From Nitrospirales bacterium (GTDB lineage: Bacteria; Nitrospirota; Thermodesulfovibrionia; Thermodesulfovibrionales; Dissulfurispiraceae), in the NCBI GenBank assembly GCA_020846375.1, contig JADLDZ010000110.1:1-34431 (forward strand): DNA of 34,431 bases, read 5' to 3'. The notes beneath the pieces are model-generated. The model was not told the DNA's origin, made no database searches, and saw nothing but the letters and a program-made list of their open reading frames with translations. The position numbers were made by a program, and so were the translations under genes. Shown here piece by piece: positions 18,980 through 34,431 of this stretch; position 1 is the first letter of the stretch; every line of letters begins with the position of its first letter.

Positions 18980-19055
18980 TCCCGGGTAGCTCAGCTGGCA
19001 GAGCAGGTGGCTGTTAACCACCCTGTCGGGGGTTCGAGTCCCTCCCCGGGAGCCA
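18980..19055 (+). tRNA. tRNA-Asn (anticodon GTT), CCA encoded
   Basis: Hand-folded cloverleaf. The acceptor stem pairs TCCCGGG with CCCGGGA. The D-arm is GCTC/GAGC. The anticodon stem pairs GGTGG with CCACC, with loop CTGTTAA. The T-arm is GGGGG-TTCGAGT-CCCTC. The discriminator is G, followed by CCA. Confidence 0.95.
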
Positions 19056-19090: not shown

Positions 19091-19520
19091 ACGCAAGACA
19101 CCGTGGGTTGATCCCCTCGGGGTCTCGTCGCTTCTGGCGTGTCCACGCCGACTTACGCCCGCCCGCACATTTACCCTGATTCTCCATTTTGAAACCCACC
19201 GCCTGGGGGGCCGGGTGCAACCCTGGGGGTTGTGCGCGTTCTCCGAAAATGTCCTTTCCGAATTCTCCCGTTCTCCGTTTTTCGAGTCGCCTTGTTTAAC
19301 AGCCCGGTTGCATCCGGGCGCCCGCTTCGACATTTTGAACTCCCCTCCGGTAAGTATCTGCCGAAAGCCGGACCAGTGGGTCCAGTGCAAGCGGATTACC
19401 AGACAGCGGAAACGGCCGTGAGAACGGAGACCGTTGTGGGTGCCTACGACATCGCCTTCGGGTGGTGTCGGATGGGCCGCATCTTTCCTCGATGCGCTGA
19501 TCAAACATGGTCTTGCCTAG

Positions 19521-19736
19521 GTGCAGGACGACAAACCCGCACAGATATCCATCTCCGCCTTGGTCTGGCAGGGCGTCGACGCGCTCCGGCTCTCGGGGTT
19601 GACCAACATGCTCGACCGGCCGGCCGGAGATCTCGGCTATCCCGACTCCGCGCGTTGGATCGAGGAGCATCCGAAGGAATACGCCGAGGGCGTATTCCGC
19701 GGGTTCATTGTCGACCCGCAGGGAGGGAAATCCTGA
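19521..19736 (+). other. Unassigned ORF fragment, translationally coupled (TGATG) to the next gene; probably the 3' remnant of a decayed gene
   Basis: The ORF ends at TGA 19734-19736, overlapping the ATG at 19736. The same frame continues upstream across a TAG at 19518. Further upstream, protein-like stretches switch frame. Confidence 0.25.
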
Positions 19737-20236
19737 TGTGCGGGCTCGCGGGCGTCATTTTTGGAAAGAAGCGACGGTGCGCCGAGGAGCGGGAGCACCT
19801 CGCCTGGCTCTTCACTCGCCTGTTGATATTGAGCGAGGAGCGCGGTCCCCATGCCACCGACGCGGCTTGGCTCGATATCGACAGATGCCACCGTCTCTTC
19901 AAACGCCCGGTGACGGCCGAGCGGTTTGTGAAGGAGCGGCTCCGCCGCTGCCGCGGGCAGATCACCGCCATCATCGCCTGCCGGACCGATCCGGAAACCG
20001 TCATCGTGCTCAAAGGGAACCGGCCGTTGGAAATGCGGTGGCATCCCCGCCGCAAGGCGGTCCTCTACGCGTCGGACCCGGCGTACCTCGACGCCGTGCT
20101 GGCGGAGGAACAAGGCTGGAGGGAGCTTCCGGTCCCGCCCATGAGCCTGGTGGTGTTCCGGCGCGAGGACCTGGCCGCGTATTCGGTGGAGCCCTTCGAG
20201 TTCGTCGCCCAGGAGAGAAAGGGGGCGGAACAGTGA
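19736..20236 (+). CDS. Class-II (Ntn, N-terminal Cys) glutamine amidotransferase-like protein, apparently internally shortened
   Basis: The sequence starts MCGLAGVIFG and continues ...ERGPHAT. The central catalytic region expected in GAT-II domains seems absent. At 166 aa it may be a remnant. Confidence 0.5.
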   Translation: MCGLAGVIFGKKRRCAEEREHLAWLFTRLLILSEERGPHATDAAWLDIDRCHRLFKRPVTAERFVKERLRRCRGQITAIIACRTDPETVIVLKGNRPLEMRWHPRRKAVLYASDPAYLDAVLAEEQGWRELPVPPMSLVVFRREDLAAYSVEPFEFVAQERKGAEQ

Positions 20237-20802
20237 CAGACACCCCAATGAACCCAGCAATGAATCCAACAGAACCCTCGAAGCCGAACACAACCGGAAT
20301 GCTGAGACTCTTCGTCTACGGCACCCTGAAGCGCGGTTTCTGGAACCACGACCGCTTTTGCCGGGGTGTCCTGACAGTAGAGGATGCAGTGGTCCGCGGC
20401 CGCCTCTTCGAGACATCCTCCGGCATCCCGGTCCTGAAGGTTCCGGAGGAGGACATCCTCGCCGTCGGGACCACCAACCCGCTCGCCGACGTGGCCACAC
20501 AATCGCACGTAACGACCCGCATGTCCAATCCCGAGCCAACCCCCGACCGGCTCCCGAAGAAGAGCACAGGCACGCCCTGGGGCCCCGTGTACGGGGAGCT
20601 TCTTGCCTTCGACGACCCCGAGACCCGCCTCCCGGCCATTGACCGGCTGGAGGGGTTCCACCCCGGCGGTCCCTGCCTCTACCGCCGCGTCCTGGTCCCT
20701 GTCCGGATAAACGGAACCGTTCTCCCGACCTGGCTCAATGCGGGTGATTGCCACATCTCCGGTAGGCTTACGTCGCTTTGTGGCTCTCGTTGGCCCAGAT
20801 AG
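20233..20802 (+). CDS. Gamma-glutamylcyclotransferase (GGCT/AIG2-like) family protein
   Basis: It carries LRLFVYGTLKRGFWNHDRF...VRGRLF...PVL and LEGF...YRRV. The GTG start overlaps the upstream TGA (GTGA). Alternative ATG starts are at 20248 and 20299. Confidence 0.7.
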   Translation: MTDTPMNPAMNPTEPSKPNTTGMLRLFVYGTLKRGFWNHDRFCRGVLTVEDAVVRGRLFETSSGIPVLKVPEEDILAVGTTNPLADVATQSHVTTRMSNPEPTPDRLPKKSTGTPWGPVYGELLAFDDPETRLPAIDRLEGFHPGGPCLYRRVLVPVRINGTVLPTWLNAGDCHISGRLTSLCGSRWPR

Positions 20803-20842: not shown

Positions 20843-20870
20843 TTGACACGCACTCCGACTTTCGTATAGT
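20843..20870 (+). promoter_or_regulatory. Candidate sigma70-type promoter for the HTH / RtcR-like genes
   Basis: TTGACA (20843-20848), a 16-nt spacer, then TATAGT (20865-20870). Confidence 0.5.
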
Positions 20871-20997
20871 ATGTGCCAGTTTGTTCTGTTCGGACCGGAT
20901 GGAGGCCAATAGGTGCTATCCTGCACCGGGCTTTTGGCATAACCGAAGGACAGAGGTGGTCGGGATGGGACGAGACCCTGTGCGACTGGAGTCAGTG

Positions 20998-21208
20998 ATG
21001 GAAGATCGATGACTTTCCGTAGATGAGATCGCGGCCTATCTCGGCATCAAGCGGGATGCGGTCTACAAAATGGATATCTGAAAAGCAGATGCCGGCGCAC
21101 CGGTTGGGCCGCCTCTGGAAATTCCGCAAGGAAGAGGTGGACGAGTGGGTAAAGACAGGGGGAGCAGCGGAGTCCGTTTCTCAGAATTCGGATACGGGGA
21201 AGAAATGA
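20998..21208 (+). pseudogene. Excisionase/AlpA-type (HTH_17-like) DNA-binding protein, disrupted by an in-frame TGA and a +1 frameshift
   Basis: It reads MEDR-TGA(21010-21012)-LSVDEIAAYLGIKRDAVYK. An extra A in the run at 21067-21070 then shifts the frame into WISEKQMPAHRLGRLWKFRKEEVDEWVKTGGA. Confidence 0.7.
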
Positions 21209-22701
21209 TGAATGTTCTGCTGACATTTACAGGATTTCATGACCCTTATTTCAAGGGATTGGTTGACCAGGAGGAACAGCCTGGACCCATCCTTTCCCTC
21301 CTATCCACACGCTCTTTCGATCATATATTTCTCTTCGATACCCCAAGCACGCAGCGGGTTACCGGGGAAACAAAGGACGCTATCAAGAAGCTCCATCACA
21401 GGAGCGAGGTTCACGTTCTCGAAATCAACCTTGCCGATCCGACGAATTACCAAGAGATATTCAGGGGGCTCAAAGCTCATCTCCATCGTATCATTGAGGA
21501 TTTTGCTTCAGCACGCTTCTTTGTCGCAGTCGCGTCGGGAACGCCCCATATGCATGCCTGCTGGGTTCTCCTTACGGCCTCCGGCGAAATTCCCGCCCGC
21601 ATCCTCCATGTGCGACCACCGCATTTTGTGACAAAACAACACCCGCTCGTGACCGAGGTGGATTTGTCCTCGCATGAGTTCCCTACCGTCAGGTTCCAGG
21701 ATGTATCGATTCCTGTTGAAGAGAGCCAAGCCGATGTCGATTCCGTCAGAGTGCAGCTTGGCATTGTGGGAGATCACTCCGCGATGCAGCGTTCACTCGA
21801 GTTGGGTGCGATGCTGGCTCCATCACAGGCCCCGGTCCTCATCTTTGGCGAGACAGGGACCGGCAAGGAGCTATTCGCACGGTACATTCACCGATTGAGT
21901 GGAAGGCCGCGAGAGATCTTTGTCGCTGTAAATTGTGCAGCAATTCCAGAAGACCTTGTCGAAAGCCTGCTATTCGGTCACAAGAAAGGAGCCTTTACTG
22001 GCGCGATCAACGACCAGGTTGGGAAGTTCGATACGGCGGATAAAGGGACCCTTTTCCTTGATGAGCTCGGAGAGCTTCCCATACCCACACAGGCCAAGTT
22101 GCTGAGAGTTCTGCAAGATGGACTGGTGGAGCCGATTGGACAAGCCAAGGCGCATAAGGTTGACGTGCGGATTGTGGGTGCAACGAATCGGGACTTACGC
22201 AAGCTGGTGAGGCAAGGTAAATTCCGCGAAGATCTTTTTTATAGGCTCAACGTCGGCGAAATCAAACTTCCTCCGCTCCGTGAAAGACGCTCTGACATTC
22301 CCAAACTGGCGCTTCACATTCTCGACAGGTTGAATGGCTCTTTGCGACGACCCAAGAGGTTGTCGGCGGAAGCCTTGTCCAGGCTGCAATCTCACAACTG
22401 GGCGGGGAATGTTCGCGATTTAGAAAACGTCATCGAGAGGTCTGTTCGTCTTTGCCGCAATGATGTTTTGGACGCAGACGACCTCCTAATCACGGAACCG
22501 GTCACCTACGCGGACCCACTGGATGCACTTCCCGAGCCCTACGAGGGATTCTCATTGGATGAGTTTCTCGGGAGCGCTCGGAAGCAAATGATTCTCCGGG
22601 CGCTTGAAGCAGCCAACGGCAACCAAAGCCAAGCGGCTCGAATGCTTGGGATCACGCCGCAGGCGGTGCATAAGTTCTTGCAATCGAGACCAAAGACTTA
22701 A
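21205..22701 (+). CDS. RtcR-family sigma54-dependent transcriptional activator (N-terminal CARF-like domain + AAA+ + Fis-type HTH)
   Basis: The N-terminal segment LEINLADPTNYQEIF...VAVASGTPHMHACWVLLTASGEIPARILHVRPP is colinear with E. coli RtcR VEIELHNPWDFEEVY...IHITTGTHVAQICWFLLAEARYLPARLIQSSPP. Walker A (GETGTGKE), GAFTGA, Walker B (LFLDELGEL) and FREDLFYRL are intact. The C-terminal HTH is QSQAARMLGITPQAVHKFL. Confidence 0.8.
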   Translation: MMNVLLTFTGFHDPYFKGLVDQEEQPGPILSLLSTRSFDHIFLFDTPSTQRVTGETKDAIKKLHHRSEVHVLEINLADPTNYQEIFRGLKAHLHRIIEDFASARFFVAVASGTPHMHACWVLLTASGEIPARILHVRPPHFVTKQHPLVTEVDLSSHEFPTVRFQDVSIPVEESQADVDSVRVQLGIVGDHSAMQRSLELGAMLAPSQAPVLIFGETGTGKELFARYIHRLSGRPREIFVAVNCAAIPEDLVESLLFGHKKGAFTGAINDQVGKFDTADKGTLFLDELGELPIPTQAKLLRVLQDGLVEPIGQAKAHKVDVRIVGATNRDLRKLVRQGKFREDLFYRLNVGEIKLPPLRERRSDIPKLALHILDRLNGSLRRPKRLSAEALSRLQSHNWAGNVRDLENVIERSVRLCRNDVLDADDLLITEPVTYADPLDALPEPYEGFSLDEFLGSARKQMILRALEAANGNQSQAARMLGITPQAVHKFLQSRPKT

Positions 22702-22714
22702 ACCATGGTTTAAG
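22697..22714. promoter_or_regulatory. Perfect 18-bp palindrome CTTAAACCATGGTTTAAG, candidate enhancer (UAS) site 1
   Basis: The sequence is self-complementary and overlaps the stop codon of the RtcR-like gene. It shares the core TTmAACC-N2-GGTTkAA with site 2. Confidence 0.55.
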
Positions 22715-22718
22715 ATGT

Positions 22719-22734
22719 TTCAACCTGGGTTGAA
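22719..22734. promoter_or_regulatory. Palindrome TTCAACC-TG-GGTTGAA, candidate enhancer (UAS) site 2
   Basis: It has 7-bp perfect arms. Its centre is 21 bp from the centre of site 1 and about 87 bp upstream of the -24 GG. Confidence 0.55.
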
Positions 22735-22811
22735 GGATAAAATGATGTCAGGACTAACGACAAGGATACTAACACTTTTAATTACAACGGGTTGCCGCTC
22801 GTTCCGGGAAG

Positions 22812-22827
22812 TGGCATGGGCTTTGCT
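22812..22827 (+). promoter_or_regulatory. Sigma54 (-24/-12) promoter
   Basis: TGGCAT-GGGCT-TTGCT compared with the consensus TGGCAC-N5-TTGCW. An AAAGGAG Shine-Dalgarno sequence and the ATG at 22882 follow about 45 nt downstream of the predicted start site. Confidence 0.7.
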
Positions 22828-22881
22828 TCCTATCGGACGCAGACAGACCGAGCAAGGGTCCGAAACCAGAAAGGAGCGGCC

Positions 22882-23166
22882 ATGCCAACATTTACGGTCA
22901 CATCAATCATCGACGGAGATACTTTTGAGGTCCACCCCCTATGGAAATGGAACGGTGAGGCGGGTACCCGAGTCCGCCCGGCGGGCTACGATGCCCCGGA
23001 GCTTCACGCATATGGAGGCCAAGCGGCTAAGGACAAGTTGTCAAAGCTCATATGTGCGGGGCAAGTCGAACTCCGGACGGCCTACAAGATCGACCGAGGA
23101 CGCTTGGTCTGCGAAGTTTTTTTCAGAAACACGAATCTTGCGGATTACTTTCCCGAGTGGCAGTGA
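22882..23166 (+). CDS. Small thermonuclease (SNase)-like protein
   Basis: 94 aa. IIDGDTFEV...RVRPAGYDAPEL...GQAAKDKL...DRGRLVCEV follows the SNase pattern DGDT...RLxGIDAPE...G.eA...D.YGR.L. Confidence 0.65.
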   Translation: MPTFTVTSIIDGDTFEVHPLWKWNGEAGTRVRPAGYDAPELHAYGGQAAKDKLSKLICAGQVELRTAYKIDRGRLVCEVFFRNTNLADYFPEWQ

Positions 23167-23193
23167 TCGGCTGGAATTTCAGGAGGAGCGCCT

Positions 23194-25473
23194 GTGAAGG
23201 ATTATTCGACTGAAGCAGATGCGAGGATTGTCATCGACGATCTGCTCTGCCAAGCGGGATGGGACCCCGCCGACAAGTCACAGGTGCTCACCGAGGTTTC
23301 TATTCGTGACACATCATGGGTGATCTCTGATCCCGTGGCTCCCTATGGATACAAACCCAGCCGGAAAACGAAAGACGGTGATGAGATACCAACCGGTCGC
23401 GCTGACTATGTCTTGATGGACCGGAACGGCCGCCCGCTTGCCATCATAGAGGCAAAGCGCACGGCCATAGAGCCATATACGGCCAAACAACAGGCGCTGC
23501 CATATGCCAAAAAAATCGGATCGCCGTTCATCTTTCTTACGAATGGCGAACTCATCTATTTCTGGGACTACGGCAACGACGACGCCCGGATCGTAAATTC
23601 CTTCTTTTCCCGCCGCGACCTTGAGCGATTGGTGGAGATGCGCACCACCCGCAAGCCGCTCGCTACAATAGAAATCCCAGAGTATTACCTGCGCCAAGGC
23701 GAGACCCGGCAGGTGCGGCCCTACCAGAGTGACACCATGCAGGCTCTGGACCACGCTGTGGAGCTCGGCAAGCGCCGTTTTCTGATTGAACTACCCACCG
23801 GCACAGGCAAGACGGATCTCGTCTCCATATATATCAAGCGGCTCATCCAGGCCGGACGCGCCGAGCGCATTTTGTTCCTGGTAGACAGGGAGCAGCTTGC
23901 CAAACAGGCGCTCGAAGCCATTCAAGACATTCTAAACCAATACAGCAGCTACTGGTTGCGCCCAGGCATGGTTCGGCAGGAACAACAGATTACGGTCTGT
24001 CTGCTTCAGACGATGATCAGCCGTTACACGGAATTCACCAGTGGCTATTTTGACGTGCTCATAGCCGACGAATGCCACCGGTCCATCTATGGCTCCTGGC
24101 AGACCGCGCTTACGCATTTTGATGCGCTTCACATAGGACTGACTGCAACACCCTCGGCCTATATCGAGCGGAACACCTTCCAATTCTATCAGTGCCACGA
24201 CGGCCAGCCGGATTTCGCCTTTCCGATCCTGCAGGCGTTTCGGGACGGTTTTCTGGTGCCCTACAAATTTGCCACCGGCATCACTCAAATCCTTGCTGAA
24301 GGTGCGGAGGTCGATGAACAAACATACGACCCGTCCGAATTTGAACGCAAATGGACGAACGAAGACTCCAACAAGAAAATGATGCAGGAGTTCGACCGGC
24401 TCGCCTGGGAGAACTTCAAAGAGTTGGCTCCCGGTCAAAAGACCGGACCTGGCAAGACCATCGTTTTTGCCATCACCAAGCACCATGCCGCAAGGCTGGC
24501 TCATTTCCTGAACGAATTACATCCTGAACTCAAGGGGCAGTACGCTGAGGTTATCACCAGCGACGTTGCGGACGCCGACGATCTCATCCGCAAGTTCAAA
24601 CGCGAGGAGTATCCGCAGGTTGCCGTCAGCGTCGGCATGCTCGATACCGGTTTCGACTGCCGGGAAGTGCTCCACCTGGTAATGTGCCGCCGGGTGCGCA
24701 GTCCCATCCTCTACCAACAGATGCGGGGTCGCGGAACGCGCACGGCAGATCATATCCAGAAGCGAAAATTCGTCATCTATGATTTCTTCGGCAACCACGA
24801 CTACTTCAACGATAGCGATACCGACATCTTCACCGGCATCGGTCGCGGACATGCTCCTGGCGGCGAACGCAAACCACCCAAACCGCCAGGCGACCTTGTC
24901 GAGCTTGGCCTCGAGGACGAGTGGCTTCACGCGGTTACCTATGTCGAGGTGGGGCCGGAGGGTGAGCGAGTCGACAAGCGCGACTATGTCACCAATTGGG
25001 AGACCAGCGTTCAATCTGCCGTGAAGGATGACCCGATCATCCAGAAGGTGCGGCGAGGAGAATTACTCACCGAAGACGAGGAAAAGGCGCTGGCTGACCG
25101 ATTAAACCGGCCGGAGATGTATTTCAACGAGGAGAACCTTCGCAGGGCTTACCGACAGCCGGGTGGCAACCTAATCGATTTTATTAAGGCCGCTCTTGGC
25201 AGCCTCAAGATAAAACCCCGCGAAGAAGAATTGACCGAGAATTTCCAGGCGTGGCTGGTCGCAAAATCGATCACACCCCAGCAGGCGCAGTATCTTTCAC
25301 TCCTCAAGAACCGCGGCATCGCCCGCGGCCGCATCGAGCTGGAGGATTTGTTCCAGCCGCCACTTTCCATTTTGAATGCGGCAGAGTTGGGCGTTGAGCT
25401 CTTCGGCGAGAGGGGGCTCAAGGAAATCATCCAGGATTTGAACGATTCGGTCTTCATGAAGAAGGTCGCATAA
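23194..25473 (+). CDS. hsdR: Type I restriction enzyme R subunit (HsdR)
   Basis: The N-terminal nuclease/HSDR_N region reads EADARIVIDDLLCQAGW...GRADYVLMD...AIIEAKR. SF2 motifs are ELPTGTGKT, DECHRS, LTATP and QMRGRGTR. A GTG start follows an AGGAGGAG Shine-Dalgarno sequence. Confidence 0.9.
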   Translation: MKDYSTEADARIVIDDLLCQAGWDPADKSQVLTEVSIRDTSWVISDPVAPYGYKPSRKTKDGDEIPTGRADYVLMDRNGRPLAIIEAKRTAIEPYTAKQQALPYAKKIGSPFIFLTNGELIYFWDYGNDDARIVNSFFSRRDLERLVEMRTTRKPLATIEIPEYYLRQGETRQVRPYQSDTMQALDHAVELGKRRFLIELPTGTGKTDLVSIYIKRLIQAGRAERILFLVDREQLAKQALEAIQDILNQYSSYWLRPGMVRQEQQITVCLLQTMISRYTEFTSGYFDVLIADECHRSIYGSWQTALTHFDALHIGLTATPSAYIERNTFQFYQCHDGQPDFAFPILQAFRDGFLVPYKFATGITQILAEGAEVDEQTYDPSEFERKWTNEDSNKKMMQEFDRLAWENFKELAPGQKTGPGKTIVFAITKHHAARLAHFLNELHPELKGQYAEVITSDVADADDLIRKFKREEYPQVAVSVGMLDTGFDCREVLHLVMCRRVRSPILYQQMRGRGTRTADHIQKRKFVIYDFFGNHDYFNDSDTDIFTGIGRGHAPGGERKPPKPPGDLVELGLEDEWLHAVTYVEVGPEGERVDKRDYVTNWETSVQSAVKDDPIIQKVRRGELLTEDEEKALADRLNRPEMYFNEENLRRAYRQPGGNLIDFIKAALGSLKIKPREEELTENFQAWLVAKSITPQQAQYLSLLKNRGIARGRIELEDLFQPPLSILNAAELGVELFGERGLKEIIQDLNDSVFMKKVA

Positions 25474-25482
25474 GGAGCAGCG

Positions 25483-27153
25483 ATGAACCAGGATTTGCGC
25501 AGAAAATTGAACCGGATCACCGACATCCTTTGGGCCGGCGGTGTGACCAATCCGGTTACCTATATCGAGCAGATTTCGTATCTGATTTACCTTAAGCTGC
25601 TCGACGAGGAGGAATCCAGCCGCGAGCTCAAGGCCCGGCTCATGGGAAAACAGACCAACGGTAACGGCAAACTGCTCTACCCGAAACAGGCCGAGCGTTT
25701 CCGCTGGTCCAAGTGGCGTTTCAAGAGTGGTACGGATCTGCGCGACTTCGTGCGCGACCACGTTTTTCCCTATATGGCTTCGCTGGTGAAGGAGGAGCCG
25801 CAGATCGCAGAGTATTTCCGCGACGCCGTGCTTGAGGTCGTTGACCCCAACGTGCTCAAGCAAGTGGTGGACGAGATCGACGGCATTGACTTCGCCAAGC
25901 TCGGCACCGACGTGAAGGGCGACATCTTCGAATACATGCTGACCCACCTGGGGCAGTCCGCTCTGAATGGCCAATTTCGAACGCCTCGCCAGATCCGCAC
26001 CATGATGGTCGAGATGTTGGACCCCAACCTCGGCGATACGATCTATGACCCGGCTTGCGGTACCGGCGGCTTCCTTATCGATGCTGTCGAGTACATTCTG
26101 GCCAGATACTCAACCGAGCCTCAGGAAGTACCCATCTACGGCGAGGAGTGGCTGGAAAAGCGCGCCCAATCCATCAAGGAAGCGCAGAAGGACATCCCAA
26201 CCTTGCAGACCTACCGCAAGGGACCGGGTGAAAAGATTCCCAACTGGGAGCTTTTGGAGCGCTCCATCTACGGCATCGACGTATCGCGCCAGATGATGCG
26301 GATCGCCATGATGAATCTGGTGCTACACGGCATCCGCCAGGCCAACGTTAAGCGCGCCAACACGCTATCCGATATGGGTGGTCTCAGCGAGGACGATCTG
26401 AACCGCCGCTACAAGGTGATCCTTTCCAATCCGCCCTTTGCCGGCGTCCTTCCCAAAGAGTCGATCCGTAAGGACCTGCCCACCAACTCCAAAAAGAGCG
26501 AGCTGCTCTTTCTGGGTGTGATGATGGAGGCCTTGGCGCCGGGCGGCCAGTGTGCGGTGGTTGTGCCCGAGGGGCTCCTTTTCGGTTCGACCTCGGCGCA
26601 CGTAGAACTCCGACGAAAACTCGTCGAGGATTTCGATTTACTGGCTGTGGTCTCCCTGCCTGCTGGAGTATTCAAACCCTACGCCGGAGTCAAGACCGGG
26701 GTCCTGGCCTTCCGGATGCCAGCTTCAAGCGTTAAGAAGGACAAAAAGACCAAGCATAAGGAAAAGGTCTGGTTCTACGATGTGCGTGCAGACGGTTTCG
26801 ACCCTGACAAGATTTCCGGTGGCGGCAGGCCTGAAACCCCCGAACGGAACGACATCCCTGATCTTCTCAGCAAATGGAAGGCCTGCAAGGAATCGAAGTT
26901 CTCGAATCCGCCGGGTGTCGAGGCCGGAACCCTTTTGCAACCCGGAAGCGACGAGCCGCGCTGCTGGTGGGCAACCATCAAATCTGTCGCCGAAAACGAT
27001 TACAACCTTGCTGCGGGACGCTACAAGCCTCAGATTGCTGAAAAGGCTCCGGATGATGACCCGAAGCAGCTTATTAGGGAGACACTGACGATTGAACATG
27101 AGATCGCTGGTGGTTTGGAGAGGTTGCTTCAATACATGGAGGCGGTCGAATGA
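25483..27153 (+). CDS. hsdM: Type I restriction-modification N6-adenine DNA methyltransferase (HsdM)
   Basis: An HsdM N-terminal helical domain is followed by motif I DPACGTGGFL and motif IV LSNPPFAG. Confidence 0.92.
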   Translation: MNQDLRRKLNRITDILWAGGVTNPVTYIEQISYLIYLKLLDEEESSRELKARLMGKQTNGNGKLLYPKQAERFRWSKWRFKSGTDLRDFVRDHVFPYMASLVKEEPQIAEYFRDAVLEVVDPNVLKQVVDEIDGIDFAKLGTDVKGDIFEYMLTHLGQSALNGQFRTPRQIRTMMVEMLDPNLGDTIYDPACGTGGFLIDAVEYILARYSTEPQEVPIYGEEWLEKRAQSIKEAQKDIPTLQTYRKGPGEKIPNWELLERSIYGIDVSRQMMRIAMMNLVLHGIRQANVKRANTLSDMGGLSEDDLNRRYKVILSNPPFAGVLPKESIRKDLPTNSKKSELLFLGVMMEALAPGGQCAVVVPEGLLFGSTSAHVELRRKLVEDFDLLAVVSLPAGVFKPYAGVKTGVLAFRMPASSVKKDKKTKHKEKVWFYDVRADGFDPDKISGGGRPETPERNDIPDLLSKWKACKESKFSNPPGVEAGTLLQPGSDEPRCWWATIKSVAENDYNLAAGRYKPQIAEKAPDDDPKQLIRETLTIEHEIAGGLERLLQYMEAVE

Positions 27154-29042
27154 AGTGGTCGATACATCCTCTGTCAAAGATAGCGATTGACCTTCAGCCT
27201 GGGTTCGCAATGCTGCCAAAAGCAGGGGATTCGAATTTCCCACAGCTTAGAACGAACAACGTGTCTTCTGAAGGCCGGATTGACCTAAATCTGGTCAAGA
27301 AAGTTCCCGCATCCAAGAAAGAATGCGAGCGCTACTCGCTTCAACATGGCGATATTCTTTTCAACAATACAAACAGTGTCGACCTGGTCGGCAAGACCGC
27401 TCTCTTTGATCTCGAAGGGCCCTATCTTTTCTCAAACCATATGACTCGTGTTCGGGTCAATCTCGAAATTGCAGACCCGCACTTCGTAGCACGGCAATTA
27501 TTCTGGATCTGGAGATCCGGTGGTTTCCGAACGATGGTCACTCGCTGGGTAAATCAGGCGGCAATCAATAAGACAATGCTTGGGGGCGTGAAGATCTGTC
27601 TGCCAGCCCTCTCCGAGCAACGTCGAATTGTTGAGATACTCCACCAGGCAGACGCACTTCGGAGAAAGCGCGCCGAGGCCGACGCAAAGGCCGGTCGCAT
27701 TCTCCCCGCGTTATTTTACAGAGTGTTTGGCGATCCTCTGGCACTGATAAGCTCCGGCGAGGGTGTCCCTCTTTCTGAGCTTGAAGTAGACCTGCAGAAC
27801 GGATTTGCCTGTGGCGAAAAGGATGTTGAGGATGGCGTTCCGCACCTCCGCATGAACAACATCGACGATGCAGGCGTGCTCAATCTGGAACTTGTCCGGA
27901 CCGTCCCGTTTGACCGTGATACTGAACGGTATCGGCTAATGGAGAAAGACGTGCTTTTCATGGGCACGAACAGCGAGGACAAGATCGGCAAGACCTGTCT
28001 ATTCTTGCCTCCCGATGAACGAACCTACCTATTCAGCAATCATCTAATCCGCCTTCGCGTATCGGACTCGCGCATTACCCCAGAGTATCTTGCTGGTTTC
28101 CTCCACCTCCTATGGTCGAAGAGGTTCTTCCCTTCCATTGCCAAGAGATGGGTCAACCAATCTGCGGTGGCTCAGTCTTCACTTGCAGCCCTTCGCATTC
28201 CGTTGCCGGGCGAAAGATCGCTTCAAATGTTCACGGCCGCATTCCAAAACCTCCTGTCTCTGAGAGCACAGCGGGTGCGCTCAGGAGAAACCCTCGACCA
28301 GACCTTTGCCGTCTTGCTTCATCGTGCCTTTACCGGCGACCTCACGGTCAAGTGGCGCGAGGCGCATATGAAGGAACTCCTGGCGGAGATGGAAGCCCAG
28401 GCCAAAGCTCTTGATTGCCCGTCAACGCAGAGCAAATCACCAGAGGTCGGATCGAAACGCCATGCCGGTCATGACATGCATAACAAGGCAGCATTGGCTG
28501 CGTATATAACTGACCGTTGCCATACACCCGACCGCCCCATGGGAAGGGTGAAGCTCGCCAAGCTCTTTTATTTGGTACAGCAAAAGGCAGAGATCGAACT
28601 CACCGAGACATTCATGAAGCGCGCCGCTGGGCCGCTTGACGATGAAATCCACAAGTTCCTGAGCCTTGCTCAGAAGAGTAAGTGGCTGGTTCTCCTCCGG
28701 GGAGAAGGCGATCTGAAACCCGTAAAGCCGGGAACAAACGTTTCCAAAGCCATCGAGCAAGCCGAGAAGCTTTTAGGTCCTGCAAAGGCAAAGGTTGACG
28801 AGATGCTCGACCAGATGAAGGGATGGGGCTACCGCGCTCTTGAACGCTGGGCCACCGTCCTCGATGCATCCTTCGAACTGAAGGCAGCCGGACATCCTGC
28901 TACGGTCGAGACCATTAAGGATGTCATCCAGAAGCATCCGGAGTGGGTGCCCAAATTAAACAGGGATGAGTTCTCAGACACACATATCGAAACCGCTCTC
29001 AAAGGACTGCGCGGTTTCGGCTTTATCACAAACCAAGATTGA
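27150..29042 (+). CDS. hsdS: Type I specificity subunit (HsdS) with two target-recognition domains plus a roughly 200-aa C-terminal extension
   Basis: The two conserved regions are LPALSEQRRIVEILHQADALRRKR and LPGERSLQMFTAAFQNLLSLRAQR...FTGDLTVKWREAH. The ATGA start overlaps hsdM. The tail (about aa 425-630) contains AAYITDRC...MGRVKLAKLFYLVQQ...RAAGPLDDEI. Confidence 0.85.
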   Translation: MKWSIHPLSKIAIDLQPGFAMLPKAGDSNFPQLRTNNVSSEGRIDLNLVKKVPASKKECERYSLQHGDILFNNTNSVDLVGKTALFDLEGPYLFSNHMTRVRVNLEIADPHFVARQLFWIWRSGGFRTMVTRWVNQAAINKTMLGGVKICLPALSEQRRIVEILHQADALRRKRAEADAKAGRILPALFYRVFGDPLALISSGEGVPLSELEVDLQNGFACGEKDVEDGVPHLRMNNIDDAGVLNLELVRTVPFDRDTERYRLMEKDVLFMGTNSEDKIGKTCLFLPPDERTYLFSNHLIRLRVSDSRITPEYLAGFLHLLWSKRFFPSIAKRWVNQSAVAQSSLAALRIPLPGERSLQMFTAAFQNLLSLRAQRVRSGETLDQTFAVLLHRAFTGDLTVKWREAHMKELLAEMEAQAKALDCPSTQSKSPEVGSKRHAGHDMHNKAALAAYITDRCHTPDRPMGRVKLAKLFYLVQQKAEIELTETFMKRAAGPLDDEIHKFLSLAQKSKWLVLLRGEGDLKPVKPGTNVSKAIEQAEKLLGPAKAKVDEMLDQMKGWGYRALERWATVLDASFELKAAGHPATVETIKDVIQKHPEWVPKLNRDEFSDTHIETALKGLRGFGFITNQD

Positions 29043-29054
29043 TGGAGGTGCATT

Positions 29055-29261
29055 ATGCCCAAGAAGCCAGAAAACCACGGCAAACCCTGGACCGACAAGC
29101 AGGTTCAGCAGTTGGAAAAACTCGTTGACCAGAACACCCCCACACGGGTGATCGGTCTCAAACTCGGACGGACGGAAGACTCGATCCGGTCCAAGGCAAG
29201 CGAAGAGGACATCTCGCTCAAGCCGACAAATCAATCACCTTACAACCGGCGCAAGAAATGA
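29055..29261 (+). CDS. Small basic protein, possible Myb/SANT- or sigma-region-4-like HTH
   Basis: 68 aa with KPWTDKQVQQLEKLVDQNTPTRVIGLKLGRTEDSIRSKA. A GGAGGTG Shine-Dalgarno sequence lies upstream. Confidence 0.45.
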   Translation: MPKKPENHGKPWTDKQVQQLEKLVDQNTPTRVIGLKLGRTEDSIRSKASEEDISLKPTNQSPYNRRKK

Positions 29262-29279
29262 GGCGTTGAAGGAAGTAGC

Positions 29280-30416
29280 ATGGACGACGATCTTCGACAT
29301 TTCCGGCCAGCCTACCTGAAGCTCCAGGAGGATATGGAACGCTTGAACCGCGCGCTCAAGCCGTCCTATCTGAGCGTTTATGAACGGATGGAACGGGCGC
29401 TTGAGCCGATCCGGCGTCAGCATTTGGAGATCTCACGTTCCATCGAGCTTTCCGGACTTGCGTCATCCCGTCTGGCGGAGATCGTCCAGGCCAATCAGCG
29501 TTGGCAAGATCTGATCGACCAAGCCACCGTCTCGGGCCGCGTTTTTGAGGATATCAAGCGGACGCATCAGACATGGCTCGAAGGGATCAGGCCGATGCAG
29601 GATAGCATCGAACAGCTTCAAGCAGCGGCCAAAATGTCTCTTGGCGATATGGCATATCGGGCGACTGTCGCAGAGCAGCTCTTCGCCGGAATTGACTTCG
29701 ATGCCATGCGACAAGCTATGGCATTGCCGGAGCCGGCGTTCCTGAAGTTCCAGGACGTGATCGGCAATGTGACGTCAACCTATGAGAAACTGGCCGCATC
29801 GATTCGAGTCCTTCCAGATGTGACCTATTTACCTGCGTTCGCGCTGCCCGGAGCAACGCGTGAGGTCTTCATCACTGGCTACGCTTCAGACGCGATCCGG
29901 ATTCCAGAAGAGCCGGAGGACGAGGATGATGCATCTGTCGTTCAGTTGATCGCCGAAGTGGAGCAGGAAACCTCTGGCTGTATCGGATTGCTACAGGCCG
30001 TTGATCCCGCCCTGGCCAGACCGTATATCGGCGCTCACGATGCACTTCGTGGGAGAAACGCCGATAGAGCGAGACACATTCTTTCCTCGTTGAGAGAGTT
30101 CTGGAACCACTTGCTGCGTCGCCTGGCCCCGGACAAACACGTGCTTTCATGGATATCGACGGATGATAAAGACCTTCTCCACGAGGGGCGGCCCACCCGG
30201 AGAGCGCGCGTGCTGTATGTTTGTCGCAGCCTCAACCATGAGCCTCTGACCGAGTTCGTCGTTCAAGACACGCGTGCGCTGGTGAAACTGGTGGAGTTTT
30301 TCAATCGTGTCCACGAACTCGAGCCGAAATTGACGGATGAACAGCTTCGCGCCCTCCTGCTCCGAACCGATTCTTGGCTCACGTACATTCTGCAAATTTG
30401 GGAGGGGACGAGATAA
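29280..30416 (+). CDS. Hypothetical, predominantly alpha-helical protein (378 aa)
   Basis: The ORF has a Shine-Dalgarno sequence and is tightly packed between its neighbours. The N-terminus is heptad-like and the C-terminal roughly 130 aa are helical. No catalytic motif was recognised. Confidence 0.5.
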   Translation: MDDDLRHFRPAYLKLQEDMERLNRALKPSYLSVYERMERALEPIRRQHLEISRSIELSGLASSRLAEIVQANQRWQDLIDQATVSGRVFEDIKRTHQTWLEGIRPMQDSIEQLQAAAKMSLGDMAYRATVAEQLFAGIDFDAMRQAMALPEPAFLKFQDVIGNVTSTYEKLAASIRVLPDVTYLPAFALPGATREVFITGYASDAIRIPEEPEDEDDASVVQLIAEVEQETSGCIGLLQAVDPALARPYIGAHDALRGRNADRARHILSSLREFWNHLLRRLAPDKHVLSWISTDDKDLLHEGRPTRRARVLYVCRSLNHEPLTEFVVQDTRALVKLVEFFNRVHELEPKLTDEQLRALLLRTDSWLTYILQIWEGTR

Positions 30417-30418
30417 CC

Positions 30419-32056
30419 ATGCTGACTGCTTTAAGAATCGGAAATTTTAAGGCTTTTGCCGAAACGCAACGGATTCCTATCCGTCCCTTGACACTGATTT
30501 ATGGTGCGAACAGTTCCGGAAAATCGAGCGTGCTGCACAGCATGATTCTCGCCCGTCATGCACAGGAGACGGGCAATCTGGATGTTCATCGCACCAATGT
30601 GGGTGGCGAATCGGTGGATCTGGGTGGCTTCCGCCAGTATGTCCACCGGCGTGAGGCCAATCGCCGAGTCGAGTGGGCTATGGACCTCGATACTAGTTCA
30701 TTCAAGGATCGGCTCGCGGAACTCTTCGCGCCCGTGAAGCAGGTTACGATGCGCCTCAATCTTGGCATCGGACTGGATGATCAAGACCACCCGCTCCGGG
30801 AGTCAATCCCTGAAATTCACACCTATGAACTTCTCGCCGATGGTCAGAGCCTTCTCCGGATGAGTCACCGCAGAGACGGTAAGCTTCAGCTCGACCGCTT
30901 GGATCACGAACATCCTGTATTTCGGAAAGTTATCAAGGCGATGGTCCTGCTTTCTACAACGACCGAAACGATTCACCCGGAGGACTTTGAGGGCCTTGAT
31001 GAGGCAATTGCCGAGCTTGTCCCGGAGGTGGTGGCAAAGAGTACGCAGTTTTTGCCTGACGGATTGGCAGAATCAAATGTTTCCAGCCCGGGCGGTCAGG
31101 CCACCCTTTTTTTTACAATCAGTAAAGCCCGCAGAAAAGAGGAGTTAGGCGCGGCAGTACGGTCATTCCTTCCCCGCAAGATCGACGAAATTCTAAGAGG
31201 TGTCGGGCAGGTGGTCGCAGGTGAACTATCGCGGCTCAGATACTTGGGTCCATTGCGGTCTTATCCGCCGCGCCATCTGGCCTTTTCCCAGCACCACGAT
31301 CCGAACTGGTATGCTGGCGGGGGCTACGCATGGGACGTCATTCGTCGTGACGCAACTGTTCGGAAACTGGTTAATGAATGGCTCTCCGCGCCTGACCGAC
31401 TCCAGACACCATACGAGCTTCGTATACGCCATCTTCTGACAATAGACGACCTCGACCCGGATTACACCAAAGTCATTGAAACGTTAGAACAGAGATTTAC
31501 GGGCGGCGAACCATATGATTGGGACCTTTTCGGCGAACTTTATTCTGCGCTGGAGAAAATAAAACAGAACGAGGCAAAACTCACCGAGGTTCAGGAACTC
31601 AACCTTGTCGATATGCGGAGTAATACAATTGTCAGCCACCGGGATGTGGGTATTGGTGTAAGCCAGGTTTTACCTGTACTTGTGACTTCGTATGCGTCAC
31701 AAAACCAGATTGTCGCCATCGAGCAACCGGAAATCCATTTGCACCCGGCGCTCCAGGCCGACTTGGGTGATGTGTTCATCCAATCTGCGCTTGGCCCAGG
31801 CAGGAACAGGTTCTTGATTGAGACGCATAGCGAACACTTACTTTTGCGCGTAATGCGCCGGATGCGTGAAACCAGCAACGACGAACTGCCTGAAGGAGTT
31901 CCACCTATCACTCCGAAGGACGTGTGCGTGCTGTTTGTACAGCCGAAAGGAACATCGTCGGCGGTGCGCCACCTGGAATTAGATGAAGAAGGTCAGCTCC
32001 TGGACGCGTGGCCGGGCGGCTTCTTTGAAGAAGGCTACCGGGAACGGTTTGCGTGA
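30419..32056 (+). CDS. ABC-type / AAA_15-AAA_21-like ATPase with a DUF3696-like C-terminus
   Basis: The N-terminus reads LRIGNFKAF...PLTLIYGANSSGKSS (Walker A), followed by LRYLGPLR. The signature-like motif is GIGVSQVLPV, Walker B is IVAIEQPEIHLHP and the H-loop is IETHSEH. The C-terminal motif is WPGGFFEE. The ATG lies 3 nt after the upstream TAA. Confidence 0.8.
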   Translation: MLTALRIGNFKAFAETQRIPIRPLTLIYGANSSGKSSVLHSMILARHAQETGNLDVHRTNVGGESVDLGGFRQYVHRREANRRVEWAMDLDTSSFKDRLAELFAPVKQVTMRLNLGIGLDDQDHPLRESIPEIHTYELLADGQSLLRMSHRRDGKLQLDRLDHEHPVFRKVIKAMVLLSTTTETIHPEDFEGLDEAIAELVPEVVAKSTQFLPDGLAESNVSSPGGQATLFFTISKARRKEELGAAVRSFLPRKIDEILRGVGQVVAGELSRLRYLGPLRSYPPRHLAFSQHHDPNWYAGGGYAWDVIRRDATVRKLVNEWLSAPDRLQTPYELRIRHLLTIDDLDPDYTKVIETLEQRFTGGEPYDWDLFGELYSALEKIKQNEAKLTEVQELNLVDMRSNTIVSHRDVGIGVSQVLPVLVTSYASQNQIVAIEQPEIHLHPALQADLGDVFIQSALGPGRNRFLIETHSEHLLLRVMRRMRETSNDELPEGVPPITPKDVCVLFVQPKGTSSAVRHLELDEEGQLLDAWPGGFFEEGYRERFA

Positions 32057-33048
32057 AGGAGGAGCTGCCTGTGCTTTATGAATTTGCCATGACGCCTGAC
32101 CTATTCGACGCATCCGTAGCCAACTCAGACGGCAGAGCAAGCATTATTCTGGTCGAACTTTTGCGGGGGATAGCCGAAAACGGCCTATTGGCAAACCTCC
32201 ATAAGGATCGGTGGTTACGTCATGTAACAGAGAAGCGGGCAACGACGCTTTCACCCGCACTGAAAGATAAAGTCCTTACATGTCTTTCGGTGCTGCATGA
32301 TCGGCATCGGCTGGTTCGACATCCGAAGTGCATAGCTGGCGATCCCGGCAATGATAAGGGATGGTTGAACCTGGCCTTCGATTCGCATGACCGAATTCCC
32401 CTTCACGCCATTGTCCTGAGCCAACCGTTAATAGACGGTTGCGGCCGCGAATGCGACGCCTTGGTCGAGTTCTTTGGCTCTTTGGATTCAACGCAGTGGA
32501 ACGGGCGACGGAAGAGGACATTGTCTCTGACTAAATCGGATGTCGACTACCGCGCCGCTCTTGCTCCGATATTGCGTCATGCGAAATCCCTGGCACTTAT
32601 CGACCCCTGGCTGAACTCGCATGAATCACGCTACCTCGACACGGTTACCATCTGCTCGAACGTATTGGGACAAAGAGGACATGCCAGGCTTCAAGGGCGT
32701 ATCGATATTCATGCTGAAACAGGCAAACAGAAGCCAGATGGCCGAACCGTTGCAGACCACCTCGCCGCCTGGGAACAAAAGCTTCGGCCGCTGATCCAGG
32801 AGGATCGCCATAGATTCAGGGTGTTCCTCTGGGAATCTTTACCTGGTTCTGAGTCGATGCATGACCGCTTTATCCTGACGGACCAATGTGGCATTTCTGC
32901 TCCCGGCGGACTGGATTGCCGAAGTCACTCCCATGCCAATAGAACGGACTGGAGCCTGCTTGACGAGGATGTAAGACAACGCCACTGGAACGAACACGAC
33001 CCCCCTGTGAGCCCCTTCAAGTTGCTGGGGAATAGGGAGATTTCATGA
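32053..33048 (+). CDS. Hypothetical protein with a C-terminal HxRx4D...GG.D motif (possible divergent PLD/HKD-like fold)
   Basis: The GTG start overlaps the ATPase stop (GTGA). An alternative GTG at 32071 follows an AAGGAGGAG Shine-Dalgarno sequence. The motif SMHDRFILTDQCGISAPGGLD lies at 32857-32916. Confidence 0.5.
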   Translation: MKEELPVLYEFAMTPDLFDASVANSDGRASIILVELLRGIAENGLLANLHKDRWLRHVTEKRATTLSPALKDKVLTCLSVLHDRHRLVRHPKCIAGDPGNDKGWLNLAFDSHDRIPLHAIVLSQPLIDGCGRECDALVEFFGSLDSTQWNGRRKRTLSLTKSDVDYRAALAPILRHAKSLALIDPWLNSHESRYLDTVTICSNVLGQRGHARLQGRIDIHAETGKQKPDGRTVADHLAAWEQKLRPLIQEDRHRFRVFLWESLPGSESMHDRFILTDQCGISAPGGLDCRSHSHANRTDWSLLDEDVRQRHWNEHDPPVSPFKLLGNREIS

Positions 33049-33088
33049 CGAGAGTTAGGTGCAGTCCAGCCGGAAGGTTCACAAAAAG

Positions 33089-34431
33089 ATGACTAACGAG
33101 GAAATAGCCAGATTCTTCAATAACGCGCGGCCCCACATTCAGGGCAATCCTGACCTGCGCGATCCCCAGGTCGAGGGATGGTTCCGCACGCGCCAGCATT
33201 TCCGGAACAGTTCCGAGCACGCCATCCTCCAGATTCCGGTGGGCTGCGGCAAGACCGGCCTCATGGCCCTGCTGCCTTTTGAGACCGCCCAAGGGCGGGT
33301 GCTGGTGATTGCTCCGAACCTTGAAATTCGTCGGGGCATATCCACCGCCTTCGACGTCGCTGGGCGCGAGTGCTTTTGGACCTCCACGCGTGTGTTGACC
33401 GACGTGAGTCATGGTCCCTTCACGGCCGTCTTGGATGGCCAGGACGCAAACATCCACGACTGCGATAACTCGCACATCGTGGTCACCAACATTCAGCAAC
33501 TGGCCAGCCGGGCCGACCGCTGGCTCCCGGCCTTTACCGACGGGTTCTTTGACCTGATCCTGGTAGATGAGGGGCACCACAATGTAGCCAGAAGCTGGGA
33601 GCGGGTCTTTGAGCGGTTTCCGAACGCCAAGGTCGTCAGCCTGACCGCCACGCCATTCAGAGGCGACGGACGCGAGATTGCCGGCGAGCGGGTCTATGCC
33701 TATCCGTTCCGGACCGCAATGGTTCGTGGGTACATCAAGCAGATCACCGCCGTGAACGTCGCGCCCCAGGAGATTTCCTTCACCTATCGCGGGGATGCCA
33801 GGCAGCATACCCTCGAGGAGGTCCTTCAACTCCGGGACGAGGAATGGTTCAGTCGGGGTGTGGCTCTCGCGCCAGAGTGCAACCGGTCCATCGTTGACGC
33901 CAGCATCCAGTGGCTTCAGCACCTTCGGGAGACCGGCACATTCCATCAAATGATCGCGGTCGCATGTTCGGTGGACCACGCCCGCCAGGTCCGGTCTCTT
34001 TATGCCGAGCGCGGTCTGCAGGCGCGTGAAATCCACAGCAACATGCCAGCGGAGGAAATTGAGGACGTGCTCCAGGACCTTCGCCGGGGCCGGATCGATT
34101 GCATCGTCCAGGTCCGGATGCTCGGGGAGGGATTTGATCACCCAAACCTGAGCGTGGCCGCCATCTTCCAGCCCTTCCGGTCGCTGTCGCCCTATGTCCA
34201 GTTCATCGGCAGGGTCATGCGGGTGATCCACCAGAACAACCCCCAGCACCCGGACAACCGGGGCGTGGCGGTTTCCCACGTGGGGTTGAACATCGACCGT
34301 CATTGGGAGGATTTCCGGCGGATCGACCAGGAGGACCAGGAACTCATCCAGGGCTGGCTTGAAGCGGGTGACGAGCGTCCCCCGGCCGATGAGCCGGGCC
34401 GCCGCAGACGCCTGACGCCGGACATGGTGGT
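33089..34431 (+). CDS. SF2 DEAD/DEAH-box helicase (ResIII + helicase C), 3'-truncated by the window end
   Basis: My own translation of the plus strand gives MTNEEIARFF...QIPVGCGKTG (motif I), LVDEGHH (motif II), SLTATP (motif III), IVQVRMLGEGFDHPNL and QFIGRVMR (motif VI). It is absent from the ORF track because no stop codon lies within the window. Confidence 0.8.
   Translation, partial: MTNEEIARFFNNARPHIQGNPDLRDPQVEGWFRTRQHFRNSSEHAILQIPVGCGKTGLMALLPFETAQGRVLVIAPNLEIRRGISTAFDVAGRECFWTSTRVLTDVSHGPFTAVLDGQDANIHDCDNSHIVVTNIQQLASRADRWLPAFTDGFFDLILVDEGHHNVARSWERVFERFPNAKVVSLTATPFRGDGREIAGERVYAYPFRTAMVRGYIKQITAVNVAPQEISFTYRGDARQHTLEEVLQLRDEEWFSRGVALAPECNRSIVDASIQWLQHLRETGTFHQMIAVACSVDHARQVRSLYAERGLQAREIHSNMPAEEIEDVLQDLRRGRIDCIVQVRMLGEGFDHPNLSVAAIFQPFRSLSPYVQFIGRVMRVIHQNNPQHPDNRGVAVSHVGLNIDRHWEDFRRIDQEDQELIQGWLEAGDERPPADEPGRRRRLTPDMV

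Follow-up and report, generated by a model that had tools for sequence, protein, structure and literature searches.

An RtcR-like CARF/sigma-54 activator in front of a type I restriction and defence gene train in a Nitrospirales bacterium

The activator, its downstream promoter and the gene train

The window analysed here is the entire 34,431-nt contig JADLDZ010000110.1 of a Nitrospirales bacterium (assembly GCA_020846375.1), and the element in question is a gene for a 498-aa RtcR-like activator, which is followed on the same strand by a type I restriction-modification (R-M) system and further defence genes. An initial annotation, made from the sequence alone, had proposed that this activator is wired via a sigma-54 promoter to the restriction/defence train instead of the RNA repair genes rtcBA, a proposal that is supported by the conserved promoter, the candidate upstream activating sequences (UAS) and the conserved gene order described below. 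Related loci found in other genomes are numbered L001-L068 and referred to as relatives. The features of the window that carry the argument, among them helix-turn-helix (HTH) proteins, a staphylococcal nuclease (SNase) fold and a superfamily 2 (SF2) helicase, are as follows:

20843..20870, +, predicted sigma-70-like promoter TTGACA-16-TATAGT (11/12 consensus, from a consensus scan), upstream of the HTH_17 and activator genes
20998..21208, +, small HTH_17 (excisionase/MerR-type) gene, inactivated (aligned to the intact genes of L004, L006, L068 and L003)
21205..22701, +, RtcR-like CARF / sigma-54 AAA+ (GAFTGA) / Fis-HTH enhancer-binding protein, 498 aa (Pfam, PADLOC, motifs, CARF fold)
22698..22713, palindrome 1, TTAAACCATGGTTTAA, 16 nt, candidate UAS overlapping the activator stop codon (read from the sequence)
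22719..22734, palindrome 2, TTCAACCTGGGTTGAA, 16 nt, candidate UAS (unique in the window, 0.10 expected)
22781..22795, +, weak IHF-like element AATTACAACGGGTTG between UAS and promoter (semi-conserved block ATAACAATGGGTT in the alignment)
22812..22827, +, sigma-54 -24/-12 promoter TGGCAT-GGGCT-TTGCT, TGGCATGGGCTTTGCT (single exact consensus match)
22882..23166, +, 94-aa mini SNase-fold protein (p94), first gene past the promoter (AlphaFold2 (AF2), Foldseek)
23194..25473, +, hsdR, type I restriction subunit, EcoAI/EcoEI-like (Pfam ResIII, HSDR_N, EcoEI_R_C; PADLOC REase_I 7.5e-83; NCBIfam restrict_EcoAI 1.9e-79)
25483..27153, +, hsdM, type I methyltransferase (Pfam HsdM_N, N6_Mtase; PADLOC MTase_I 1.9e-139)
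27150..29042, +, hsdS, with two target-recognition domains (residues ~1-400) and a ~230-aa C-terminal extension (Pfam Methylase_S; PADLOC Specificity_I 3e-73 up to residue 398)
29055..29261, +, 68-aa small HTH protein (PHROG transcriptional regulator/HTH DNA-binding, 1.2e-10 and 1.5e-4; 99% conserved in L006)
29280..30416, +, 378-aa protein with a C-terminal pP_pnuc_1 (predicted pPIWI-associated nuclease) domain (Pfam PF18165 4.3e-21; PADLOC Aga_Nuclease 9e-08)
30419..32056, +, ABC-type ATPase, AAA_15/AAA_21 and DUF3696 (Pfam; PADLOC PDC-M55A 6.5e-48, NsnB 2.7e-44, HEC-03B 1.9e-39)
32053..33048, +, 331-aa protein, conserved partner of the ATPase (no Pfam, NCBIfam, PHROG or PADLOC match)
33089..34431, +, SF2 (RadD-like) helicase, cut by the window end (Pfam ResIII and Helicase_C; full-length homologs 619 aa)

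Pfam, PADLOC, sequence motifs and predicted fold agree on the architecture initially assigned to the protein at 21205-22701, namely a CARF sensor, a sigma-54 AAA+ domain with GAFTGA loop and a Fis-type HTH. The Pfam matches comprise Sigma54_activat (3e-67), AAA_lid_14 and HTH_8 (2e-09), while Walker A (GETGTGKE at residue 215), GAFTGA (262) and Walker B (LFLDE at 283) are intact. The initial annotation had staked its reading on the CARF/RtcR-like character of the N-terminal domain, which is supported by profile and fold: Pfam RtcR (PF06956) matches residues 38-164 with 44.2 bits against a cut-off of 23.1, Cas_Csm6_CARF matches at 1e-05 together with the PADLOC profiles CARF1 and Csm6, and the 40 best Foldseek matches in the PDB to an AF2 model of residues 1-176 (predicted local distance difference test (pLDDT) 77.5) are CARF domains only (Csm6, Cam1, Can2, Cad1, Card1, VC1899). 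Across nearly its full length, the protein matches the PADLOC profile PDLC01995, RtcR_PspF2--CARF_AAA_HTH (E = 5.1e-139, residues 3-493 on profile positions 2-476 of 481), from whose label the family name is taken, and by this match the activator is a member of the already described RtcR_PspF2 family. Clustered at 50% identity (E up to 0.001), the family of its CARF domain comprises 664 clusters, the majority in proteins of about 500 aa. On the other hand, the NCBIfam equivalog model of RtcR, NF038308, gives 347 bits, below its cut-off of 650, and the RtcR ligand is therefore not simply transferable to this protein.

The DNA between the activator and p94 contains both of the regulatory elements noted initially, two palindromes and a -24/-12 promoter, the latter being phylogenetically conserved. 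An exact match to TGGCAY-N5-TTGCW occurs once in the 34-kb window, with both strands scanned and 0.07 matches expected, while a relaxed scan allowing two mismatches returned 25 matches against 24.8 expected and no second credible site inside the train. The promoter footprint was drawn from 27 non-identical activator-SNase intergenic regions, in which about 110 nt separate the activator stop codon from the -24/-12 element, itself placed some 73 nt ahead of the SNase ATG; the exceptions are one or two near-consensus copies and the divergent L054. The GG and GC of the element are retained everywhere except in L054, while the five spacer bases and the flanks vary freely, and this conserved footprint is the strongest single argument for a real linkage between the activator and the genes behind it. 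The palindromes, whose centres are 21 bp apart, sit as a pair 78-114 bp upstream of the -24/-12 element, with the centre of palindrome 2 about 110 bp upstream of the predicted transcription start, which places the candidate UAS at about -110 and -131. In the 27-sequence alignment the GTTTAA half of palindrome 1 is conserved, and an inverted repeat TTTCAAC-N4-GTTGAA in the region of palindrome 2 is likewise conserved across the aligned loci; both palindromes are putative binding sites of the activator. Between them and the promoter, the weak element at 22781-22795 resembles the IHF consensus, WATCAANNNNTTR, and is a possible DNA-bending site. Downstream, a strong ribosome binding site precedes the mini-SNase gene and is conserved in the alignment as well. 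As judged from sequence, the attributes of an enhancer-binding protein, that is, Walker A and B motifs, GAFTGA and a C-terminal HTH combined with candidate UAS before a -24/-12 element, are all present.

An ordinary RtcR acting in trans on distant rtcBA genes, with R-M adjacency being coincidental, would accord with the best NCBIfam model of the activator, RNA_repair_RtcR (2e-103), and with one source that labels a homolog as 'RNA repair transcriptional activator RtcR family protein'. Nevertheless, such an arrangement is highly improbable. The score of the activator amounts to about half of the equivalog cut-off, and the conserved UAS and promoter lie immediately downstream, facing the defence genes. 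Neither rtcA nor rtcB, which the initial annotation had reported to be missing, was found as an RtcB or RTC-cyclase domain among the window open reading frames (ORFs) scanned, nor in the annotated relatives L001, L003 and L068. Moreover, the family is profiled separately as RtcR_PspF2 and is recorded as not linked to Rtc in the relevant passages of PMC4012209.

Upstream, the sigma-70-like element at 20843-20870 may serve as promoter of the HTH_17 gene and the activator gene. In the window, the HTH_17 gene carries two lesions, a TGG>TGA change in its fifth codon and a 1-nt insertion within a run of A, while in relatives it is intact and encodes 61-69 aa, with Pfam HTH_17 recorded on the intact homologs. 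In the intact aligned copies of L004, L006 and L068 the HTH_17 stop codon overlaps the activator start (ATGA), which suggests translational coupling of both genes.

The first gene past the promoter had been proposed to encode a mini SNase, and this identity is supported by fold. The AF2 model of the 94-aa protein (pLDDT 83) finds staphylococcal nuclease as its top Foldseek matches (template modelling (TM) score 0.72 over 96 columns, E = 6.5e-05, probability 1.0). Pfam SNase stays below its cut-off (E = 0.11), and a profile of the protein retrieved only spurious repeat matches (IcmE, GlnRS) and no SNase from the PDB sequences; some sources label homologs as 'thermonuclease family'. Pairwise alignment by hhalign to an SNase sequence (E = 0.0099) places DGDT (D13), R32, D37 and E40 onto D19GDT (D21), R35, D40 and E43. 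Among 22 homologs, D11, R32, E40 and R74 never vary and D13 and D37 hardly ever do; R74 would correspond to SNase R87, while the C-terminal helices of SNase are missing. All activators with at least 62% identity have this gene downstream, and within this subfamily no other gene accompanies the activator without exception. Because it is the invariant first gene, the mini-SNase is probably part of the regulatory module, in which it would make or destroy the CARF ligand.

The train initially described as at least nine tightly spaced same-strand genes comprises nine, the gaps being 27, 9, -4, 12, 18, 2, -4 and 40 nt, and Pfam and PADLOC matches uphold the identities assigned to hsdR, hsdM, hsdS with its extended tail, the ABC ATPase and the SF2 helicase, as do PHROG HTH/regulator matches (~1e-10) for the small HTH protein. 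By profile, the type I R-M system is complete, with HsdR, HsdM and HsdS all encoded together (Pfam, PADLOC). The HsdS tail (residues ~400-630; 28350-29042) has no Pfam match and a weak NCBIfam match to the C-terminal, non-macrodomain part of DarG (2.4e-6); it is 89% conserved in L006, and the HsdS of L068 is comparably long (622 aa). The first 247 residues of the 378-aa protein could be placed in no family of Pfam, NCBIfam, PHROG or PADLOC. The ATPase and its 331-aa partner recur together in six loci, a homolog of the partner following the ATPase directly in L003, L004, L013, L018 and L068. Both form an overlapping gene pair, the partner measuring about 310-330 aa, and in L003, L004 and L013 a DUF3800 gene precedes the pair.

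The 619-aa helicase and a downstream gene of about 82-88 aa constitute an independent two-gene cassette in other operons (L060-L067). There, the cassette follows BrxL (BREX), another type I R-M system or a TPR protein, or precedes UvrD-DarT-DarG; it closes the operon in L066 and L067 and often stands at the 3' end of unrelated defence operons. Its PADLOC matches are weak (best mREase_IV, 1.4e-15) and indicate no complete known system. Helicase homologs were also tried as a guide to a CoCoNuT system further downstream and proved uninformative, the cassette having turned out to be an independent module.

Conservation, cargo and chromosomal setting

A search with the CARF domain, restricted to one genome per species, yielded 56 loci in Desulfobacterota, Planctomycetota, Poribacteria, Hydrogenedentes, Cloacimonadota, Nitrospirota, Burkholderiaceae, Verrucomicrobiota and others. 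In many of these loci (L004-L026) the sensor domain is 86-98% identical across phyla, which, given the phylogenetic spread, argues for horizontal transfer. Among the same loci the target-recognition domains of HsdS diverge, being mostly 27-36% identical and up to 82% in one, which suggests the picture of a fast-moving island with swapped specificity. One activator locus lies in a bin assigned to 'Methanobacteriota', probably by a binning error.

For the count of gene order, distinct loci qualified if their activator reached 62% identity and the DNA behind it was long enough, the relatives extending 10 kb downstream. The order activator, p94, hsdR, hsdM, (insert), hsdS is kept in 22 of the 23 loci, so that the recurrence of RtcR-like genes beside hsd loci, for which the initial annotation had called for a comparison, is indeed observed. 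This order holds across at least three HsdR lineages, one 83-95% identical, one about 31% identical at ~790 aa and one about 31% identical at ~1150 aa. The exception is L026, a Cloacimonadota metagenome-assembled genome (5603-14196; activator 74% identical), in which the genes behind p94 encode, in turn, a VWA protein, a Card1-like CARF nuclease, a kinase and a UPF1-like helicase; its operon consequently holds two different CARF sensors. Activators of lower identity (42-56%) stand before AbiEi/AbiEii, before an Mrr-type endonuclease or a type IIG enzyme, or before hsdR. Beyond hsdS the cargo is modular and includes DUF3800, the pair of ATPase and 331-aa protein, AAA_15 with DUF2130, a Ser/Thr kinase, GmrSD and an extra methyltransferase; L068, for instance, matches the window in gene order up to and including the 331-aa gene, past which an N6_N4 methyltransferase takes the place of the helicase. 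The layout recurs in dozens of independent contigs and is thus beyond chance, and comparative genomics, as far as gene neighbourhoods can tell, supports a functional link between the activator and the restriction genes. In L027, L020, L031, L046, L048, L058 and L059 only truncated N-terminal activator fragments occur, without downstream SNase and hsd genes, which suggests decayed or disrupted copies.

Modularity of this kind would also be expected if the activator and its sigma-54 promoter controlled the mini-SNase alone, or provided a modest boost, while the R-M and accessory genes were mainly constitutive from internal sigma-70 promoters and the linkage reflected co-mobility in a defence island. 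R-M systems need continuous methylation, the cargo past hsdS is exchangeable and the helicase cassette sits in unrelated contexts. In addition, internal RtcR-independent promoters are expected by Bell et al. (PMC11090510). We nonetheless regard this alternative as unlikely. The gap between p94 and hsdR measures 27 nt, with no terminator-like site found in it, and no strong plus-strand sigma-70 consensus was found inside the train by a scan whose consensus is that of E. coli and which may miss host promoters. Furthermore, the type I R-M system follows the activator and p94 in the 22 loci even where the hsdR lineage has been swapped, which would not be expected from passive co-mobility.

The left 19 kb of the window are ordinary chromosome, ending at a tRNA gene:

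Left 19 kb, 16S rRNA 5' end, rsmG, mnmG
Left 19 kb, HDOD-AAA+ protein, MprF-like protein, glycosyltransferases, ferrochelatase, tRNA methyltransferase
Left 19 kb, dnaJ, MerR/HspR-type regulator, clpB
18980..19055, +, tRNA-Asn (GTT) (ARAGORN, Rfam), chromosomal flank adjoining the island

A homologous island abuts the same tRNA-Asn flank in three relatives (L004, L009, L010), and the activator with its gene train lies on an integrated, horizontally mobile defence island. Between tRNA-Asn and the island lies a 1.3-kb segment of 62% GC (19231-20575), absent from L004. In L001 the HTH_17 gene is preceded by an Amidoligase_2-DUF5049-GATase_6-GGACT cluster, to whose GATase_6/GGACT end the segment is homologous. 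Because the Pfam match of the segment is limited to the GGACT part, it looks like a decayed remnant of the GATase_6/GGACT cluster.

Within the chromosomal part, mnmG (GidA; 1152-3239, minus strand) is split into two ORFs, 2238-3239 (N-terminal) and 1152-2189 (C-terminal), representing either a frameshift/pseudogene or an assembly error. A 534-aa protein encoded at 3034-4638 comprises an N-terminal HDOD domain and a sigma-54-type AAA+ domain, in which both the GAFTGA loop and an HTH match are missing; as far as these motifs indicate, it is probably not a sigma-54 activator. This protein had been considered as a sign of sigma-54 use by the host and was dropped for want of GAFTGA. An NtrC-type regulator is encoded close to the homologous locus L003.

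Proposed control of the train

We consider it probable that the locus is a mobile defence island at tRNA-Asn whose train is headed by a portable regulatory cassette, in which a CARF-gated activator drives a sigma-54-dependent, polycistronic defence transcript. In such a circuit, the sigma-70-type promoter would express the HTH_17 gene, a pseudogene here, together with the activator, which in turn would bind the two palindromes just past its own stop codon. Occupation of the CARF domain by a nucleic-acid-derived signal of infection or damage would then cause oligomerisation and the ATP-driven opening of the sigma-54 closed complex at 22812-22827. Subsequently, a single inducible polycistronic transcript would supply the mini-SNase, HsdR, HsdM and HsdS, and thereafter the modular accessory cassettes, i.e., the HTH protein with the pP_pnuc nuclease, the DUF3696 ATPase with its 331-aa partner, and the helicase.

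Gating by RNA damage or another CARF ligand is a reasonable analogy with RtcR. There, repression of the AAA+ domain by the CARF domain is presumed to last until the protein binds tRNA halves carrying a 2',3'-cyclic phosphate and forms oligomers, and RtcR lacking its CARF domain is constitutively active (PMC7790460). A cyclic oligonucleotide would be an alternative ligand. The same wiring might respond not to RNA ends but to a cyclic oligoadenylate, or some other cyclic nucleotide, that type III CRISPR or CBASS encoded elsewhere in the genome would supply, with the mini-SNase switching the response off in the manner of a ring nuclease. The structures that best match the CARF model, cyclic hexaadenylate (cA6)-bound Csm6 and Cam1 and cyclic tetraadenylate (cA4)-bound Can2, Cad1 and Card1, point in this direction, as do an invariant SGTP motif after strand 4 of the CARF domain and the second, Card1-like CARF nuclease in the L026 operon. 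However, no cyclase is encoded in the window or the annotated relatives, and no RtcR CARF structure is among the fold matches, so that their ranking may merely reflect which structures have been solved. By hidden Markov model (HMM), the closest domains are RtcR-type CARFs, the known ligand of which is the tRNA halves with 2',3'-cyclic phosphate (PMC7790460). We therefore hold a cyclic nucleotide signal to be possible, and rather less probable than its opposite.

Within the proposed circuit, a more specific role of the mini-SNase is conceivable and advanced here tentatively. Together with the HTH_17 gene and the UAS/sigma-54 promoter, the activator and the mini-SNase might constitute a self-contained mobile 'inducible promoter cassette' for restriction systems. 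The SNase would then participate in the signalling loop, either as an RtcA-like source of positive feedback that generates the CARF ligand out of foreign or damaged nucleic acid, or as an off switch that degrades the ligand as a ring nuclease does, and restriction by the type I system would be pulsed on only during infection.

Several points weigh against the proposed control. A fully inducible R-M system would leave host DNA unmethylated at induction, and therefore some constitutive hsdMS expression must exist; the basal hsdMS promoters must exist as sites invisible to a scan with the E. coli consensus. The activator falls short of the RtcR equivalog cut-off (347 vs 650), and its closest CARF structures are cA6/cA4 binders. 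Since the post-hsdS cargo varies and the helicase cassette occurs without the activator, the distal genes are less surely co-regulated than p94-hsdRMS. Finally, rpoN is not among the genes of the 34-kb window.

Relation to known systems

Most defence systems are thought to be constitutive or de-repressed by WYL-/CapW-type repressors. If true, control of type I restriction by a sigma-54 switch that is both ATP-driven and ligand-gated would represent a different principle, one already predicted in the literature, and would raise the question of how the host avoids self-restriction upon induction. The initial annotation had not been aware of any description of this regulatory logic, which is, however, in print. 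Makarova et al. (2014; PMC4012209), in the passages concerned, describe an RtcR-like family of CARF, NtrC-type AAA+ and HTH domains that is not linked to Rtc and often lies beside R-M systems, and predict sigma-54-dependent activation of the downstream genes upon binding of an infection-derived ligand. Likewise, Bell et al. (2024, eLife; PMC11090510) report RtcR-led CoCoNuT superoperons with type I RM directly after the CARF gene, and PADLOC holds the RtcR_PspF2 profile. Since the wiring had been predicted in print in 2014 and 2024, the present locus is a clean new example and not a new principle. A literature search found no paper with experimental evidence for R-M-linked RtcR-like regulation; a 2025 preprint merely lists RtcR genes in a Pseudomonas defence island.

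Possibly new are the details, namely the mini-SNase as invariant first gene, the defined UAS and promoter, and the spread of the regulatory cassette across phyla. Neither the SNase partner nor an explicit promoter/UAS or the upstream HTH_17 gene appears in the 2014 passages on the family (PMC4012209) or in the main text of 2024 (PMC11090510); SNase or thermonuclease has 0 mentions in the main text of Bell et al., and no SNase partner is described in PADLOC. The locus constitutes a compact, fully mapped test case (UAS, -24/-12 promoter, 50-nt leader) and displays a regulatory cassette that is nearly identical across several phyla, with a previously unremarked nuclease partner; the mapped elements, the conservation of the cassette and the nuclease partner together make the published prediction directly testable.

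With E. coli and Salmonella RtcR, the activator has the CARF, sigma-54 AAA+ and HTH domains in common, whereas it scores below the equivalog cut-off and targets restriction/defence genes instead of rtcBA. It is also co-directional with its target, the promoter lying just past its own stop codon, unlike E. coli rtcR, which is divergent from rtcBA. BrxR/CapW-type regulators are sigma-70 repressors with WYL sensors, in contrast to the ATP-dependent sigma-54 activator with a CARF sensor found here. Like the activator, these WYL regulators are ligand-sensing factors that head defence operons, a subject also touched upon in the discussion of PMC4012209.

Closest is the R-M-associated RtcR_PspF family, with which the activator, going by the passages of PMC4012209 devoted to it, shares the three domains, the missing link to rtcBA and the R-M neighbourhood, nothing essential being different; to the family as described there, the window adds an explicit promoter/UAS and the mini-SNase as first gene. 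The CoCoNuT superoperons (PMC11090510) likewise have an RtcR homolog at the 5' end, type I RM and further cassettes in co-directional and tight spacing, the 94-aa SNase gene being interposed here, and L026 resembles them in the VWA, kinase and UPF1-like helicase genes after its activator. In contrast to these superoperons, no McrB/McrC-like CnuB/C or CnuH is visible in the window, which ends inside the helicase gene. Since the helicase and its small companion gene end the operon in other contexts, the island may, by analogy, be one without a CoCoNuT. Its pP_pnuc nuclease, DUF3696 ATPase with 331-aa protein and RadD-like helicase are absent from the legend of Figure 8 in Bell et al.

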